DNA of 64,000 nucleotides from a virus (taxonomy: Duplodnaviria; Caudoviricetes), in the IMG/VR virus record IMGVR_UViG_3300037601_000088, positions 64,001 through 128,000 of that record; one strand, given 5' to 3'. A program made the position numbers and the translations under genes. Of this stretch, positions 1-6,718 are shown piece after piece. Each line of letters opens with the position of its first letter. Position 1 is the first letter of the stretch. The notes beneath the pieces were generated by a model. It saw only the letters and a program-made list of their open reading frames with translations, was not told the origin of the DNA and made no database searches.

Positions 1-12
1 TGTAAACAGCCT

Positions 13-65
13 TAAGTGTCATATTTGACTCTTAATTTATCATTAACAACCAAATATGACACTTA
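13..65. repeat. Perfect 15-bp inverted repeat (hairpin, 23-nt loop)
   Basis: taagtgtcatatttg (13-27) / caaatatgacactta (51-65). Confidence 0.8.
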
Positions 66-68
66 GTG

Positions 69-214
69 TTACTGCACATTTCTGGAAAGCACCAGAGATT
101 ATTCCTGATATCTCCCAACCTTTACCGCGCTATGATCAACTCGCATCAGCTCAAGTATGTCACTTTCGAAGGGTGTGAATCGCTTTTCACCAGCTCTCCA
201 GAAATGTGCAGTAA
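69..214 (-). ncRNA. Putative ~146-nt structured ncRNA closed by a long terminal stem
   Basis: Perfect 18-bp IR 69-86/197-214, extending to 22 bp with one G-U on the - strand; internal hairpins; promoter ends just upstream. Confidence 0.55.
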
Positions 215-217
215 TTT

Positions 218-246
218 TTTATACACAAAGTAAAAGCTTATGTAAA
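218..246 (-). promoter_or_regulatory. Early sigma70-type promoter
   Basis: (G)TTTACA-N17-TATAAA, matching the T4 early-promoter pattern; same motif recurs at 26403, 44668, 44745 and 56384. Confidence 0.7.
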
Positions 247-379
247 CCTTTTTTATGCGTAATATTTTGGTGGCTCGGGATCAATCCACCAATTATCATT
301 TTCAGCAGGCCTAAAAAGAAAAGGCCTGAGACTATATCGAAAATTTTTAATATAACCTTTTGAATAAATAATAACCATT

Positions 380-1783
380 TTATACCTCTGCTTTCTTGCG
401 AATTTCATCAAAGTATGAGAAAATATTGAATTTACCGTTTGTAAAAACAGGCTTCAATAAATTACCGCTATACTTTTCAATCTGAGCAAAATCATTTCTC
501 GTGTAAGGTTCAAATTTATTACTCACAGACTGAATACCCGCTTTAGATACTTTTTTAGTATCTGTCACTGGTTTCTTATAAACAGGAAGAATTTCATCTC
601 CTATTTTGATAGCACATGCTTTCATTGCGTAACCAAGACTATCACGATTTACTTTTTGCAATAATCCTGCACCCATACCGAAGGCAATATTATCTGCAGA
701 CCATCCATTTTTTCGATAGTTTTCTAGAATATTGCCAATTGAATGAATATTCACGCCATCACCTTGAATGATACGAACATTATTTAAAACTTTAAATCCT
801 TTGGTATTAAGAGTATAACCAAAACGTTTACCTAAAATTTCAATAACATCCAATGTAACATCAATTGGATCTCCAGAATCTGGCCGAATAACAAGAGTTG
901 CCTGAGAATCAATAATCTTTTGTTTTAAATGTGTCCCCCATAATTCATCACATGCTCGGTAAATATCATAAGAATCTGATACACAAGCAAGTAATGCCTC
1001 AGGTTTTGCAAACTGATTTAACATATTATCAAAAGCATCAATTTCTTTATCAGGACCACCCCATGCAGTGATTGTACTATGTTCAGATGCAGGGATAGAG
1101 AATCCTGTAGAATTAATGCCGGCGCCATAATTTTCCCTAAGATATATCAGGGAAGTTAAAGTGTCAGTCCCCATAAAATTAATTAAATGAGCACCACCAC
1201 CAATTCGGGCCTGTTCTTCAGAGGTTGTTCCACGCGCACCAAAATCATGAAGTTTGAATGGAAGCCCATCTAAATTATCAGCGGTCATTTCGAGATAACC
1301 TTTGATAATTTTTTTAACTTCACGAGATAGTGTCGCCACGGTTGAAGGATACCAAACAGCTCGTAGAATAACGGTTTCCAAGAAGCTTGTTAACCAAAAG
1401 CATTTTGGATCAGTGTTATAGACTTGAACCTGCGGTACACCTACAGGAAAAACTGTTCCTTCTGGAAGAGCCTCAATTACAATAGGAAGTCTTCCTTCGT
1501 GAACATTTAGAATATATTCCCAACCTTCACGATTGAATGGTACACCATGAGCTTTACAAACAAGATCAGCTTGATTGATCTTTTGTTGAGTAACAACTTG
1601 ACCGACCAAATAATTCCTTATAAAAGCCTGAAGGCCGAAGTTGACAATTTCATCCGTGTAATTCATTTCAGCTGAGGTATAGCGAGGCTCAATATATGAA
1701 TACACTGTCTCGGTTTTTGGCGGATATTGAAGATAGTGGCTGTGTTTATAGCTATCAGCCATTAAGAGTAAATTATTTTCCAT
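380..1783 (-). CDS. nadV: Nicotinamide phosphoribosyltransferase (NAMPT)
   Basis: DSYKxSH, LHDFGARG, PASEHS, VSDSYD, IRPDSGDP, IIQGDGV motifs. Confidence 0.95.
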   Translation of the reverse strand: MENNLLLMADSYKHSHYLQYPPKTETVYSYIEPRYTSAEMNYTDEIVNFGLQAFIRNYLVGQVVTQQKINQADLVCKAHGVPFNREGWEYILNVHEGRLPIVIEALPEGTVFPVGVPQVQVYNTDPKCFWLTSFLETVILRAVWYPSTVATLSREVKKIIKGYLEMTADNLDGLPFKLHDFGARGTTSEEQARIGGGAHLINFMGTDTLTSLIYLRENYGAGINSTGFSIPASEHSTITAWGGPDKEIDAFDNMLNQFAKPEALLACVSDSYDIYRACDELWGTHLKQKIIDSQATLVIRPDSGDPIDVTLDVIEILGKRFGYTLNTKGFKVLNNVRIIQGDGVNIHSIGNILENYRKNGWSADNIAFGMGAGLLQKVNRDSLGYAMKACAIKIGDEILPVYKKPVTDTKKVSKAGIQSVSNKFEPYTRNDFAQIEKYSGNLLKPVFTNGKFNIFSYFDEIRKKAEV

Positions 1784-1812
1784 TTCATAAGTTCCTTATG
1801 TTAGTTTGAATA

Positions 1813-1831
1813 TTGAACGTCTATCGTTCAA
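1813..1831 (-). promoter_or_regulatory. GAUAGAC-loop leader hairpin upstream of nadV
   Basis: TTGAACG-ATAGA-CGTTCAA ending 29 nt before ATG; twin element upstream of natV. Confidence 0.6.
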
Positions 1832-2148
1832 ATGACCATGAGAATTTCTTTAGCAATTTCTAAAATTTTATTAAAATCACTATAATCAAGAGTTTTGTCA
1901 AGATTATTGACAAAAATTTGTGCATCATGTAAACACAAATTTTTCATATAACCTGGCTGTGACCATTTTTCATAATACCAGGCTCCGTCCGTGTCTCCTT
2001 TCTTATATTTTATTCTATAAATTTCTTCAGCAATAGGAATTAGAGGATTATCTATAATTTGTTTCTCTAATGCTTCTCTTTTTTCAAGAAGCATTTCGAG
2101 TTCAGATTCGACTGATTGAATGTTTCTATTAACTTGATCTAAATTCAT
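1828..2148 (-). CDS. Hypothetical protein
   Basis: ORF tightly packed between natV and nadV. Confidence 0.7.
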   Translation of the reverse strand: MNLDQVNRNIQSVESELEMLLEKREALEKQIIDNPLIPIAEEIYRIKYKKGDTDGAWYYEKWSQPGYMKNLCLHDAQIFVNNLDKTLDYSDFNKILEIAKEILMVI

Positions 2149-2151
2149 AAT

Positions 2152-3240
2152 TTAAACTCCTAGCATATCTTTGACAATAAAATAATGATCCTCAAACATT
2201 TTTTTAGGATTCAATTCATTTAATGGTACCCATTTTGCTTTGTCAGCATCGTCAGAACCCCTAACTTTTGGTAGTGAAGTTTGAGCCGGCAAACTAATCA
2301 AAAAAGCCTGAGTAATTAACCTACCACGAGCAGACCTATGTGGATCATCATAAGTTTTACTTTCTTTAATTGATCCACGAAGAACAGCTTCAGGTACCTT
2401 AAGTTTTGTTTCTTCCTTAAGTTCTCGGATAGCGGCATCTTCTAATTTTTCGTATTCATGAATAAAACCTCCAGGAAGGGCCCAAATGCCTTTGCCTGGT
2501 TCTGACCTTCTACGAACAAGAAGAATATGACCAGATTGAACAACAACAGCATCAACGGTATGTTCAATACGAGGATATTTACTTACACCTTTTTTATAAA
2601 CTTCAATAAATTCTTGTTCAGTTTTTAGCTTCGTATATGTTTCTGTTTTTTGAAATTTTTTAAGAAACTCCAAAGAATCATTAGAAAGAAAATTATTTAA
2701 AGCATTTTGTGCGGTATGAGTTCCGGTTTCAGGATCCCAACTAGGATTTATTGCTCCATAACTCCAATAAAGTTCTCTAAGATCAGTAGCATTAATTGGA
2801 TCTAAAAATTCTACAGATTCATTTCCCCATGTAGGGAATAATTTGAGATAATAACTAGTATGATCCTTTGCGCAACCAATAAGACCAATCTTATCATTTT
2901 CGTTAGTTTCGTTATCAACCAACTCACGAACTTCTTCAATCCAACTATTATCATTATATGTATGATCATTAAGAGGGAGAATTACTAATGAGTTATCAAC
3001 ATCATATTGACAACTAAATTCACCTTGTTGGTGATCATATAAACCATATGTTCGTTGAATCATATGTTTACGTTCTTCAAACGTAAAAGGATTACGCATG
3101 CTCCTGCCAGAATTAGCAGAACCAATGAGAACAATTACTTTTTTAGAAAGTTCGAGAGCACGGTCAATTACGCGCTTATGGCCATTATGAAATGGCTGGA
3201 ATCTCCCTATGAAAACTAGGGCATCATACTTATAAGTCAT
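2152..3240 (-). CDS. natV: Bifunctional NMN adenylyltransferase / Nudix ADP-ribose hydrolase
   Basis: GRFQPFHNGH (HxGH) N-domain; Nudix box ALPGGF..E....AAIRELKEET; GSDDA. Confidence 0.95.
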   Translation of the reverse strand: MTYKYDALVFIGRFQPFHNGHKRVIDRALELSKKVIVLIGSANSGRSMRNPFTFEERKHMIQRTYGLYDHQQGEFSCQYDVDNSLVILPLNDHTYNDNSWIEEVRELVDNETNENDKIGLIGCAKDHTSYYLKLFPTWGNESVEFLDPINATDLRELYWSYGAINPSWDPETGTHTAQNALNNFLSNDSLEFLKKFQKTETYTKLKTEQEFIEVYKKGVSKYPRIEHTVDAVVVQSGHILLVRRRSEPGKGIWALPGGFIHEYEKLEDAAIRELKEETKLKVPEAVLRGSIKESKTYDDPHRSARGRLITQAFLISLPAQTSLPKVRGSDDADKAKWVPLNELNPKKMFEDHYFIVKDMLGV

Positions 3241-3269
3241 CGAAAAACTCCTCTTCGACTAATGTATAC

Positions 3270-3284
3270 TGGAGTCTATCTCCA
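3270..3284 (-). promoter_or_regulatory. GAUAGAC-loop leader hairpin upstream of natV
   Basis: TGGAG-ATAGA-CTCCA ending 29 nt before ATG. Confidence 0.6.
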
Positions 3285-3303
3285 ATAATTATTTATTGTA
3301 TTT

Positions 3304-3684
3304 TTATTCTATAATTTTTGCAATTTGAAATCTTTTTTTCTCAAGGTGAGAATAATTACTTAAAATCGTATCAATTTCATCTTTAATTTCACCCAAAGAA
3401 CCAAATGTTCTAGATGCATAAAATGCATCTTTATTATACAAAAGAATATATTCTTCTTCTACATATTCTTTGTCAATATCATACCAAGAATAGCCTTCTT
3501 TATCTTTAGAATTCACAAAGGAAGACCATTCTCCTGTTTTTTTGAAAGATATTGCTGTCCCGCCTTTGCAAGTAAATCCAATATAATAATGCATTGAATC
3601 TTCGTCACTAAATTCATTTTTAGCAGCAATAAAAACTTTCGCACCATCTTTGGTGAGATAATATTTTCCAACTTCAATTTCCAT
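3304..3684 (-). CDS. Hypothetical protein
   Basis: MEIEVGKYYLTKDG-type phage N-terminus; GGAG upstream. Confidence 0.7.
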   Translation of the reverse strand: MEIEVGKYYLTKDGAKVFIAAKNEFSDEDSMHYYIGFTCKGGTAISFKKTGEWSSFVNSKDKEGYSWYDIDKEYVEEEYILLYNKDAFYASRTFGSLGEIKDEIDTILSNYSHLEKKRFQIAKIIE

Positions 3685-3842
3685 AGATTATTTCTCCGCA
3701 TCTTTCTAAATCATGAGAAAATTCCAAACAAGATCGAAAGGCATTATTTTCATGCCTTTCGATATCTACCTTTGCTATTTCTTTGGCAATATACATGAAA
3801 GTAACACACGCCATAAAAATAACGAATACAAGGAAGTCTTTT

Positions 3843-4226
3843 TTACCCAAGTTCTTCAAGCTCTTTAAGAATATCTTCTTTAGATTTGCTTGATAGTTCT
3901 TCATTTTCCTTTGTAGCAAGTGCTTCCAAAAGCTTTTCACGTTTAGCCGCGCGATCAGCTTTAGCTTTTTCTACTTCTTTTTCTTCCTGTTTAACTGAAA
4001 TAATATATTTCAGAATATCAAGCTGAAGAGTAAAAATAGCTTTGCTTGGATGCGGCCGAGTATTAATAAAACTTTCCTCGGTCACTTCTTTCAAATTTGT
4101 ATTAACATCACGAGCAATTTTATCGAGACGAGTCAGAGAAAGATCCCATAACTGTTCAACAGTAAGTTCGCCTACATTTGAGTTAAAGCGAACTTTTTTT
4201 CGAGATGCCTTTTCAAAAATATCCAT
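3843..4226 (-). CDS. Hypothetical coiled-coil protein
   Basis: AAGGA SD; charged helical C-terminus; co-oriented with the 671-aa gene. Confidence 0.8.
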   Translation of the reverse strand: MDIFEKASRKKVRFNSNVGELTVEQLWDLSLTRLDKIARDVNTNLKEVTEESFINTRPHPSKAIFTLQLDILKYIISVKQEEKEVEKAKADRAAKREKLLEALATKENEELSSKSKEDILKELEELG

Positions 4227-4240
4227 TTTATATTTCCTTT

Positions 4241-6256
4241 CTAAAACTGGACTTCATATGGTTTGTTATCTACTTTTAATAAAACTGTATTCTTTTGAGT
4301 TGATGAAAAACCTACTCCGGATAATTGATCCATCGTATTTTCGCATTTGGTTTTATCACCTAAAATCTCAAAAACTTTCCTATGCTTTCCTAACTCGGAT
4401 TTCAAAAATTCATTATAAATACCCCTGGTCGGATTTGGATTTTTACACCCAGATAGAATAAAGAACCAATGTTTGTTACCAACATTATTTTCATCCCAGT
4501 GATTAGGACTATACATAATAGTGTCAACAGACACAAATTGTTCTGTTTGAATTCCCCATTTTTCAATGGAATATGAACCACCTACAACATTTTTAGGTGA
4601 GAGTACATTAATATTACTCAATTCGCCGTTTGTAATAATAAGTTCTAAACAATGAACTGTTTTTTTGTCACTAAGACCCTTTTCATGAACATAATTAGAA
4701 ATTTTTCCTTTATATTCAACCTCTAATTCAAAACCAGGTCTTACTGAAGATCTACGATTATATTGATTTACATGAATTTCATATTTTCCATCTAATGGCA
4801 TTTTACTCCATTGAAGATTTTCAACAGGGTTTTTATTATTAGTCTGACCCCCAGCATTCATATCGACATCTAAGATACCTTTTTTATCTCCAAAATAGAT
4901 ATGCATACCATTTGGAGTATAACAATGAATATCAAGATCATCTGAATTATGCCAACCAAGACTTACTCTTAACTCAGCATCAACATTACCACCAGCCTTT
5001 TTAACTCTTTCTTTGATTGAATCTGTAACATTTCCATCATATGACCACCCGAAGTTATTATTCCATTGGAAAATCGGTTTAGCCATTTCATGAATTGGTG
5101 CAGTCAAAGACATAAAATTGCCGGCGTGATTTGATTTCAACATAATTTCAATGGATTTAGAATTAGGAACAATATTGTTCATAAAATCATCAATCGAAAT
5201 TTTTTGAGTTCCCTTCGATGGCTTTGTTTTGACCTTAACTTCTTCCATAAGAAGATTTTCAATTCCATCTTTCATTTTAGATTGAACAGAATTATTAACG
5301 AAAAGAACATTGTTAACAGAAACATCAGAAAGCTTAGCAAAACGCCGCTCCAATGATTCCTGAATGCCAAGTTCTTCAATGGTCTTCATTGCATCTTTAA
5401 CCATTGAAGGCGTAATCAAAGCTTTAGGCCGTTTATAATTTGCCGGTGCAACTTTATTTTCAAAAGCTTTTACAGCATCTTCTAAAGAAACTCCTGACGA
5501 AATATCTTGAATTAACGTACCAATCACAGTATTTCTAAAACGTGCAACCGAGTCATTTACATTCTTCCAAGCATAAAGGCTTTTTGAATTATCATCAGAA
5601 AGCTTATCAAAAGCTTTTTTATGCTTTAGAAAACCTTTAACCGATTTTAAATGTTCTTGACCGCGATAAAGAGAATTATCTTTAATTAATTCAATGACAT
5701 CATTAAGAGCTGCCACTGATAATTCATTTAATCCGCGATAAAAAACATCATATGATGACTTAAAACTTGACAAAACATGACCAGGATCATTATTCTGATA
5801 TTTTAAATCAGCAACGCCATGAAAATGATGCCATTTTTTGGTTTCATTTCCTTTAATTAATTCAATTGTATATTCGTTGCCAAAACCTCTATGTTTTGTA
5901 CGATAAATGTTTTCAATCGGTAAAGAATGAACAAATTTAGATAATTTTTTGGCTACGATATTGTAAGGATAATCTAATCCATCAACATCCCAAATTGATA
6001 CTATTTGATTATTAGAATCAATAGCAACAACTCTACCTAAATTTCGAATAAAATTCTTACAGCAAGAGCAATCATGGTATGTTCTTTCACGATAAAGAGG
6101 ATTTGTTCCTTCGGGAAAAGATTCCAGGTACACATCAAAAATATCCTGATTATCTAATTTAACAACATAAAGTTCATGATCTAGTAAATTTTGAATTTCA
6201 TTAAATTTATCATGAACCTTTGAGGCAAATGGTGTAAAGTTATATTCGTTTGACAT
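4241..6256 (-). CDS. Large hypothetical protein with CxCC motif and YfaP/DUF2135-like domain
   Basis: HDCSCC; LRVSLGW..DDLDIH...LDVD...VEN pattern; AAGGA SD. Confidence 0.7.
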   Translation of the reverse strand: MSNEYNFTPFASKVHDKFNEIQNLLDHELYVVKLDNQDIFDVYLESFPEGTNPLYRERTYHDCSCCKNFIRNLGRVVAIDSNNQIVSIWDVDGLDYPYNIVAKKLSKFVHSLPIENIYRTKHRGFGNEYTIELIKGNETKKWHHFHGVADLKYQNNDPGHVLSSFKSSYDVFYRGLNELSVAALNDVIELIKDNSLYRGQEHLKSVKGFLKHKKAFDKLSDDNSKSLYAWKNVNDSVARFRNTVIGTLIQDISSGVSLEDAVKAFENKVAPANYKRPKALITPSMVKDAMKTIEELGIQESLERRFAKLSDVSVNNVLFVNNSVQSKMKDGIENLLMEEVKVKTKPSKGTQKISIDDFMNNIVPNSKSIEIMLKSNHAGNFMSLTAPIHEMAKPIFQWNNNFGWSYDGNVTDSIKERVKKAGGNVDAELRVSLGWHNSDDLDIHCYTPNGMHIYFGDKKGILDVDMNAGGQTNNKNPVENLQWSKMPLDGKYEIHVNQYNRRSSVRPGFELEVEYKGKISNYVHEKGLSDKKTVHCLELIITNGELSNINVLSPKNVVGGSYSIEKWGIQTEQFVSVDTIMYSPNHWDENNVGNKHWFFILSGCKNPNPTRGIYNEFLKSELGKHRKVFEILGDKTKCENTMDQLSGVGFSSTQKNTVLLKVDNKPYEVQF

Positions 6257-6280
6257 AATATATTTCCTTAAATTTTAAAA

Positions 6281-6718
6281 TTAATAGGTAGAGGTGAGGG
6301 CATCAACAGCCCTCTGCCACATCTCACGGTCATCGTGAGCCGGTCCTGGAAACTTAATGCCTGAATCTGTTGTGTAATCACGCTCCTGCGCAATGAACTC
6401 CAAAGCCTCCTGCAATCGTTCTTCACGGGCAAGGGCTTGGTCGCGTTCGGCTATAATGCGATGCAGGTCTTCTTGTAGGCGCTCAACGGGCTTGTATACG
6501 TCAGTTTCCTGTCGGTCATAATTGCTCCAAGACAAGGCGTCATATTCTCCAGTAAAGACACGCCACGCGATCCTGAAACGCTCAAAAACGGTGGGCGCAG
6601 AAAGCGGTCGAGCTGGCCCCCAGGTTCCATCTGACCATTGTCTTTCTACGGTTTTCCATTGACGCCATTCTGCCCAGTGGCGGGCGCTTATGACTGTTGG
6701 TCCATGAGTATTAACCAT
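6281..6718 (-). CDS. Hypothetical protein (GC-rich island)
   Basis: Likely start MVNTH after GGAGG SD; high-GC sequence. Confidence 0.65.
   Translation of the reverse strand: MVNTHGPTVISARHWAEWRQWKTVERQWSDGTWGPARPLSAPTVFERFRIAWRVFTGEYDALSWSNYDRQETDVYKPVERLQEDLHRIIAERDQALAREERLQEALEFIAQERDYTTDSGIKFPGPAHDDREMWQRAVDALTSTY

Follow-up and report, generated by a model that had tools for sequence, protein, structure and literature searches.

A conserved two-hairpin leader RNA precedes the NAD-salvage genes nadV and natV in many phages and some bacteria

The nicotinamide adenine dinucleotide (NAD) salvage genes nadV and natV of a virus of the Caudoviricetes were analyzed together with the two-hairpin leader that an earlier note on the same DNA had described in front of both. 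The window, that is, the whole stretch of DNA analyzed, is 64,000 nucleotides (nt) long and corresponds to positions 64,001 to 128,000 of IMG/VR virus record IMGVR_UViG_3300037601_000088. NadV and NatV constitute NARP2, a pathway with which phages rebuild NAD+ after an NAD-depleting defence (bioRxiv 10.1101/2024.02.11.579819). The data showed that homologues of nadV and natV/nadM-Nudix (about 40-58% identical) have the same leader in dozens of phage contigs from IMG/VR, and we regard it with high confidence as a functional structured RNA element, which probably acts on translation initiation. It represents a real regulatory RNA family that is uncatalogued in Rfam, apparently undescribed and almost confined to positions ahead of these two genes. 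The full reading, in which this cis-regulatory mRNA element co-ordinates the translation of NadV and NatV through a protein reader, is put forward tentatively, at slightly less than even weight.

The two leaders of this phage were compared first. Each gene is preceded by a hairpin with the pentaloop AUAGA (hairpin 1), followed by a second hairpin that encloses the Shine-Dalgarno (SD) sequence (hairpin 2), and the coordinates of all four hairpins are given in Table 1. The earlier note had stated that the two copies share an identical G-AUAGA-C top on different stems, that both lie 29 nt from the ATG and that both are followed by an SD-enclosing hairpin, and all of this proved correct. Its coordinates for nadV hairpin 1 agreed with the minus-strand reading, and its 5-bp core of natV hairpin 1 was found again within a stem that extends to 8 bp. 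The spacing of 29 nt holds for nadV (ATG 1783) and, when counted from the 5-bp core, for natV (ATG 3240). The nadV hairpin 2 ends 2 nt short of the ATG, and the 3' arm of natV hairpin 2 covers the A and U of the start codon. RNAfold placed both hairpins of each leader in the minimum free energy or the centroid structure, with a folding z-score of -3.3 for the natV leader and -1.2 for the nadV leader. Two covariance models of the element, R1 and R2, scored the natV leader (3233-3298, minus strand) at 51.7 and 43.4 bits and the nadV leader (1776-1843, minus strand) at 42.3 and 36.6 bits, respectively.

A megablast search among GenBank phages found no near relative of the locus, and NadV homologues with 41-58% identity were therefore collected from IMG/VR. 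About half of the fetched NadV loci showed a hairpin at the same place with another stem and the same loop, followed by an SD hairpin. The earlier note had named absence of the motif upstream of homologues as evidence against its proposal; the covariance-model search upstream of phage and bacterial homologues found the motif present. RNAalifold analysis of 36 copies gave 8 base pairs, 7 of them with compensatory changes. When R1 was run over both strands of the window and 78 loci (584 kb), all 87 matches lay on the gene strand, as did all 33 matches at bacterial nadV loci. The gene behind the 61 best R1 matches was a NadV homologue in 33 cases, a NatV homologue in 23 and a small open reading frame (ORF) in 5. 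Among the 55 matches at E < 1e-3, 89.3% of the cells were able to pair, compared with 60.7% after shuffling and 22-48% with a slid partner; the covariation score was 0.672 against 0.163, and double changes were seen at 11 of the 12 pairs. Only copies with stems of 4 bp or more had been taken into the seed, and the alignment was fitted to the model, so part of this covariation arises by construction, which does not apply to the outer stem pairs and the later matches. A motif-first scan of IMG/VR, with the heptamer of hairpin 1, a gap and an 11-mer of hairpin 2 as the query, yielded 35 NadV, 18 NatV and 2 genes like orf106 (the ORF between natV and nadV in this phage) downstream of the motif. 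The remainder look like chance matches, and several of them fall within reading frames.

The anatomy of the element was tabulated from 67 diverse copies. The stem of hairpin 1 had a median length of 7 bp (range 5-11), the linker 10 nt (range 3-21) and the stem of hairpin 2 7 bp (range 4-9). The gap between hairpin 2 and the AUG had a median of 0 nt (range -3 to +5), and the distance from the end of hairpin 1 to the AUG a median of 27 nt (range 22-37). The loop of hairpin 1 was AUAGA in 54 copies, ACAGA in 5, AGAGA in 4, AAAGA in 2 and AUGGA in 2, which gives the consensus A-N-A-G-A. Its closing pair was almost always G-C and rarely C-G or A-U, and the three pairs beneath it were purine-rich on the 5' side. 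The conserved G-AUAGA-C of the earlier note thus stands as a kept pentaloop A-N-A-G-A, with a second loop base and a closing pair that vary. The 5' arm of hairpin 2 takes up the first half of the SD sequence, which continues into a GAG, GAU or GAA loop. Inspection for pairing between the loops of the two hairpins, between the hairpin 1 loop and the 3' end of 16S rRNA, and between the 3' arm of hairpin 1 and the SD sequence revealed none that is conserved.

Several variants of the leader were also observed. In seven natV-type copies (L036, L037, L015, L042, L039, L032 and L034), hairpin 1 forms a subclass in which a 3x3 internal loop (AAA opposite CGA) and, behind the stem, the sequence GACAUU are conserved. 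In the nadV copies of those phages the flanks AAGUCC and GGCAA are conserved, together with a bulged U. Such features may add to recognition or may reflect mere relatedness. The nadV leader of Ralstonia phage RsoM2USA (L175, 3413-3490) has the same layout with a 12-nt loop in hairpin 1 in place of the pentaloop, and in three IMG/VR contigs (L012, L020 and L024) the same SD hairpin follows a first hairpin of a further kind. There may be alternative classes of leader.

The specificity of the element was then analyzed. The G-AUAGA-C heptamer by itself is not enriched in the window (5 copies, 4.6 expected), and only the two copies at the NAD genes lie in hairpins. Of the 521 ATAGA pentamers in the whole 147-kb genome, the two with the longest flanking stems are these same copies. 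R1 over the 147-kb genome and R2 over the window gave matches at E < 0.01 solely at the nadV and natV leaders, and five other whole phage records (166-318 kb) gave 2-4 model matches each, in the nadV/natV locus. An outlier at G005:135322 (E 0.0025) is a hairpin whose loop differs, in front of a gene for a small secreted-looking protein, and was rejected as a member. An SD-enclosing hairpin of at least 6 bp was found at 5 of the 98 SD-bearing ORFs of the genome; the count does not name the five, and two of them should be nadV and natV, judging from their separately measured stems. About 43% of the NAD genes passed a crude hairpin test, compared with 1.4% of 2887 control ORFs. This heuristic undercalls copies having an internal loop, so its discordant nadV/natV calls were left unused.

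Next, the distribution of the leader was examined. Checking by eye placed it at both genes in the cultured Synechococcus phages B23 and BUCT-ZZ01 and Ruegeria phage RpAliso; BUCT-ZZ01 grows on S. elongatus PCC 7942 and RpAliso on R. pomeroyi DSS-3. Xanthomonas phage RTH11 probably carries it as well. It was not detected in KVP40, ACP17, Mx1, Cp1R7A-A1, B1VFA, SCTP-2 or 1.081.O. In a survey of 80 bacterial nadV loci, the leader was present before both nadV and nadM-Nudix in Thiothrix and Thiolinea isolates, Methylococcales, Crenothrix, a Xenococcaceae cyanobacterium, Campylobacterales, Marinicella, Alteromonadales and others, and was missing at the loci of Variovorax, Shinella and Novosphingobium. 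The bacterial carriers span Gamma- and Alpha-proteobacterial groups, Campylobacterota, cyanobacteria and others. The housekeeping gene ispG is the neighbour of the locus in Thiolinea, which indicates that the leader copies there are chromosomal. An order-level R2 scan of 151 bacterial genomes, in which the first-look filter scored just 34 candidates per genome, gave only 2 matches, a result of little weight given that filter. No NrtR-like or other regulator was found beside the motif-free or motif-bearing bacterial loci, where the neighbours were TetR/SlmA-like, response-regulator or housekeeping genes. In four records natV did not lie beside the motif-bearing nadV, and in each it was found elsewhere with its own copy of the leader; two of these records are bacterial metagenome-assembled genomes with natV on another contig. 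Since unlinked natV and nadV each have the leader, the leader defines a regulon.

The transcript context differs between the two copies. A sigma-70-like promoter match before the natV leader (Table 1) would let transcription begin with the first base of hairpin 1, at about 3288, and a TAAATA-type box occurs at the same offset (5-10 nt upstream) in many homologous leaders; sigma-70-like matches are no more numerous in this region than in shuffles. A consensus scan of the region found no promoter match before the nadV leader, which also overlaps the stop codon of orf106, and this copy is therefore taken to act within a polycistronic RNA. Its intercistronic position, together with the missing promoter match, argues for control at the RNA level. 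No terminator-like site was found after hairpin 1 on the gene strand, and no U run follows either hairpin 1. A T4-type late promoter was considered and rejected: TATAAATA is not enriched in the genome (13 and 17 copies, about 26 expected), so that the AATAAATA box before natV is no evidence of a late promoter here.

Natural variants of the locus also bear on how the leader works. In L059 (1815-1890 and 2950-3003) the second hairpin is another AUAGA hairpin, before both natV and nadV, with the SD sequence as its 5' arm and a 3' arm that touches the ATG; a reader of the loop can thus sit directly on the ribosome-binding site. In L079 (3001-5685) nadV is split into N- and C-terminal halves, and a near-identical leader precedes both, as expected if the leader sets translation yield. 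The intervening ORF of 378 aa has weak, sub-threshold similarity to Seg-type GIY-YIG endonucleases. Split nadV genes were also found in G162 and G163 (L309 and L310), with the leader on the N-terminal half only. A further good copy, in L049 (1794-2084), has a CATAAATA box ahead of it and is followed by a 76-codon ORF that consists largely of a TCAT-type tandem repeat and is overlapped by a 309-aa ORF on the opposite strand; it looks like a decayed or disrupted member of the regulon. Just downstream of nadV in L026 (4454-4528), a match to the Rfam freshwater-2 RNA was observed (52 bits, above the gathering score).

The small gene orf106 belongs to a family of proteins of about 108 aa (L211:416, L251:7754, L039:4556 and L298:4405), which are remote homologues (L211 at E 7e-6). 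A direct BLASTP comparison of orf106 with the L039 protein was not significant, and L211 links the two. The family has an N-terminal helix and a TDG-x-W-Y/F-YE motif, with Cys and His residues in most members, and gave no Pfam or PHROG match; nor was a Pfam family found for the other small ORFs behind the leader. Where this was checked, in L211, L251 and L039, a copy of the leader precedes the orf106-like gene, which makes orf106-like genes elsewhere a third member of the regulon. As a universal reader of the leader, orf106 and its 108-aa relatives were rejected, because just 5 members occur among all loci examined.

All genes in window 1-6300 lie on the minus strand (Table 1). The record is a 147-kb IMG/VR genome with 32% G+C, and its replication and repair genes are of T4 type (a family-B polymerase, a gp41-like helicase, a gp46/47-like nuclease and RNA ligases). 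The ORF orf106 starts 3 nt past the stop codon of natV and has its stop codon within the 5' arm of nadV hairpin 1. Two other structures were observed in the window. A long imperfect inverted repeat at 7-70, just downstream of the nadV operon, surfaced solely as a spurious microRNA-like match on both strands and could serve as a terminator or as some other structured element. At 3733-3763 on the minus strand, within the overlapping minus-strand ORFs 3674-3940 and 3513-3701, lies a strong terminator-like hairpin with 12 bp and a T-rich tail behind them; it is located about 440 nt upstream of the promoter match of natV and may terminate an upstream transcription unit.

Table 1. Genes, leader hairpins and promoter match of the nadV-natV locus, in window coordinates.
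Feature	Position	Strand	Description	Basis
nadV	380-1783	-	nicotinamide phosphoribosyltransferase, 467 aa	Pfam NAMPT_N + NAPRTase
nadV hairpin 2	1786-1800	-	6-bp stem, loop GAA, SD sequence AAGGAA partly in 5' arm	fold, -2.1 kcal/mol
nadV hairpin 1	1813-1831	-	7-bp stem, pentaloop AUAGA, G-C closing pair, intercistronic	fold, -5.9 kcal/mol
orf106	1828-2148	-	106-codon ORF between natV and nadV	ORF position
natV	2152-3240	-	NMN (nicotinamide mononucleotide) adenylyltransferase-Nudix hydrolase fusion (NadM-Nudix type), 362 aa	Pfam CTP_transf_like + NUDIX
natV hairpin 2	3239-3259	-	8-bp stem, loop GGAGU with SD sequence	fold, -5.7 kcal/mol
natV hairpin 1	3267-3287	-	8-bp stem (5-bp core 3270-3284), pentaloop AUAGA, G-C closing pair	fold, -8.1 kcal/mol
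sigma-70-like promoter match before natV leader	3295-3323	-	-35 TTGCAA, 17-nt spacer, -10 TACAAT	consensus match only

The earlier note had proposed a translational operator co-regulating the pathway. The operator itself is supported and is the most natural interpretation, as the element is conserved, strand-specific, tied to the start codon and present at both genes even when these are unlinked; the comparison does not single out its reader among NatV, NadV and a metabolite. In the mechanism that we propose, a trans-acting reader would recognize the loop of hairpin 1, which lies at the margin of the 30S footprint about 27 nt ahead of the AUG, and by occupying this site or by stabilizing hairpin 2 it would lower ribosome loading on both mRNAs. 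The reader would most likely be NatV/NadM-Nudix or NadV, the former being somewhat likelier, and this enzyme would repress autogenously, with a nucleotide ligand governing its binding. Such repression would place a pathway that consumes phosphoribosyl pyrophosphate (PRPP) and overproduces NAD+ under feedback control, for which the reported cost of excess NAD+ and PRPP in NARP2 provides a rationale (bioRxiv 10.1101/2024.02.11.579819). The element travels with its genes through the phages of many hosts and several bacterial phyla, which argues for a self-contained reader and makes a host-specific factor unlikely. Its conserved part is a single pentaloop on a free stem, closer to protein operators than to aptamers, and this weakly favours autogenous repression. 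Judged from these sequence comparisons, a protein reader of some kind has a little under an even chance, and NatV in particular is a possible candidate of distinctly lower probability.

Several observations count against this mechanism or leave its parts less certain. All motif-bearing records tested carry both NatV and NadV (4/4 and 5/5), so that co-occurrence cannot separate the two as reader, and neither of them showed an RNA-binding domain in the Pfam comparison or is known to bind RNA. Part of the SD sequence is left in the loop of hairpin 2, which in nadV has little stability (-2.1 kcal/mol), and this hairpin might favour initiation instead of hindering it. Many genomes, including those of Variovorax, Shinella, KVP40 and ACP17, have closely similar natV-nadV pairs but no such element, which means that the enzymes do not need it. 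The mismatches in the stems (21 G-U, 15 A-C) are not by themselves proof of selection at the RNA level, and the spread over phyla and phages would fit a metabolite-sensing RNA equally well.

Such a metabolite-sensing RNA is the most probable alternative. The leader would then be a very small riboswitch class that senses NAD+, NMN or ADP-ribose and times NAD rebuilding to NAD-depleting immunity; the two hairpins would together bind one of these ligands, or nicotinamide or PRPP, and alter access to the SD sequence in hairpin 2. One element that recurs across several bacterial phyla and the phages of many hosts, always at the same genes, follows the usual pattern of riboswitches, and an SD hairpin resembling an expression platform belongs to the conserved unit. 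No regulator gene is consistently nearby, and the guanidine-II riboswitch is a precedent for two hairpins with only four conserved loop bases each. However, outside the SD sequence and the AUG only about 5-6 bases are conserved, all within one pentaloop, and no internal loop, junction, linker or alternative fold is conserved. Inspection revealed no loop-loop or hairpin 1-SD complementarity that is kept across the sequences, and the NAD+-I and NAD+-II riboswitch models gave no match. A riboswitch is less likely than a protein reader, though still a serious competitor. An effect on mRNA stability or processing, with hairpin 1 as a 5'-terminal protective stem-loop or as a ribonuclease site that sets the half-life, is improbable. 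It would agree with a natV-leader hairpin 1 that begins at or a few bases from the predicted transcript start and with the TAAATA-type boxes 5-10 nt upstream at many loci, but a stabilizer would need no conserved loop and would not be restricted to two genes. Moreover, nadV copies lie within the transcript in this phage and in many operons, and the spacing is fixed to the AUG and not to the transcript start.

A signal read in the DNA, whether a transcription-factor operator (of NrtR, for instance) or a promoter element in the form of a hairpin or cruciform, is very unlikely. Rodionov and colleagues reportedly placed bacterial nadM and nadV under the DNA-binding repressor NrtR in 2008; the absence of a clear excess of G-U over A-C pairs would also suit a DNA signal. 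Against this, the stem sequence changes freely with pairing kept, the conserved loop is non-palindromic, all 120 of the 120 matches are in the sense orientation, the position is fixed to the start codon, and the element is physically coupled to the SD hairpin and occurs inside operons. A chance resemblance of two unrelated hairpins, which the chance-level heptamer count in the window and the nadV leader z-score of only -1.2 might have suggested, has a negligible probability: it is already refuted by the comparative data, in which the element is specific, covaries, keeps to one strand, forms a regulon and recurs in distant genomes.

Translational control of nadV and natV by a dedicated, conserved RNA switch would make the leader a control point of the NARP2 counter-defence. 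To our knowledge, only DNA-binding regulators (NrtR, NadR and NiaR) are described for bacterial nadV and nadM, and the leader would be the first known regulator of these genes at the RNA level. The element is small (about 65 nt) and is present in cultured systems (B23, BUCT-ZZ01, RpAliso and Thiothrix isolates). Were it a riboswitch, phages and some bacteria would switch on NAD rebuilding when Thoeris, DSR or SIR2 systems strike, and it would be the first metabolite-sensing RNA known to gate a phage counter-defence pathway. Whether a moonlighting NAD enzyme or a metabolite is the reader, the result would be new biology, together with a compact translation-control part for synthetic use.

Finally, the leader was compared with known RNAs and regulators. 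The Rfam search proposed in the earlier note was carried out with Rfam 15: cmscan found no matching family in window 1-5000 at E values up to 10 and none at the gathering score in 15 motif-bearing loci, and the PyrR site model, like those of the NAD+ riboswitches, gave no match. Full-text searches for nadV, natV or nadM together with a riboswitch or RNA motif returned nothing relevant. In the NARP2 preprint, expression control is not discussed and there is no mention of a hairpin, stem-loop or promoter (bioRxiv 10.1101/2024.02.11.579819). The regulons of NrtR, NadR and NiaR have the same targets (nadM-Nudix and nadV) and follow the same logic of salvage co-regulation, but they are built on DNA operators for transcription factors, whereas the NAD leader is a covarying, strand-specific hairpin fixed to the start codon. 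An NrtR-type operator is not what was found, since the stems covary, the loop is asymmetric and every match is in the sense orientation. Nor does the leader resemble the intrinsic terminator/PeSL cassette of T4-like phages, as it has no U run and occurs solely at two NAD genes, or a CsrA/RsmA site: GGA is present in the hairpin 2 loop, but hairpin 1 has AUGGA in just 2 of the 67 copies.

Some RNA regulators come closer, but none of these families is matched in its defining features. NAD+ riboswitches I (nadA motif) and II (pnuC motif) also exert RNA control over NAD genes, and class II hides the SD sequence; however, they have conserved internal loops or a pseudoknot, and they control nadA or pnuC, not nadV or nadM. 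Guanidine-II (mini-ykkC) RNAs share with the NAD leader two small free-stem hairpins, short conserved loops, a variable linker and a ribosome-binding site in the second hairpin. Their ACGR tetraloops are identical and kiss, whereas the loops of the NAD leader (ANAGA and GGAGU/GAG) are not complementary; two identical loops occur only in L059, where both are AUAGA, and the genes under guanidine-II control are unrelated to nadV/natV. In the PyrR loops of the Bacillus pyr operon (RF00515), a homologue of a pathway enzyme of the phosphoribosyltransferase type binds repeated leader hairpins, and its binding is tuned by nucleotide ligands, as would hold for the proposed reader. The top of the PyrR hairpin is a purine-rich pentaloop of the AGAGA type, and AGAGA is a minority loop variant of the NAD leader. 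PyrR acts by transcription attenuation through anti-terminator hairpins, whereas the partner of hairpin 1 is an SD hairpin, and no choice between terminator and anti-terminator was found in the NAD leader. NadV is moreover a type II phosphoribosyltransferase, the PyrR comparison being with type I, and the usual loop of the NAD leader is AUAGA with G-C closure.

Protein-binding operators, such as those of MS2, boxB, the iron-responsive element, T4 gene 43 and PyrR, are typically simple hairpins in which the loop is conserved and the stem sequence is free. The conserved structured site at the ribosome-binding region that marks autogenous translational operators is present in the NAD leader. Like it, the operators of thrS (read by ThrRS) and of T4 and RB69 gene 43 have a conserved-loop hairpin with a free stem near or over the ribosome-binding site; they control translation of the gene of their own reader and are self-contained, gene-mobile cassettes. 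The NAD leader differs in that one operator serves two genes, often unlinked, that its loop sequence is unrelated, and that the candidate readers are not nucleic-acid enzymes. By these likenesses, the nearest analogues in function would be the enzyme-read translational operators of thrS and T4 gene 43 and the PyrR loops, and the nearest analogue in form would be the two-hairpin guanidine-II riboswitch.

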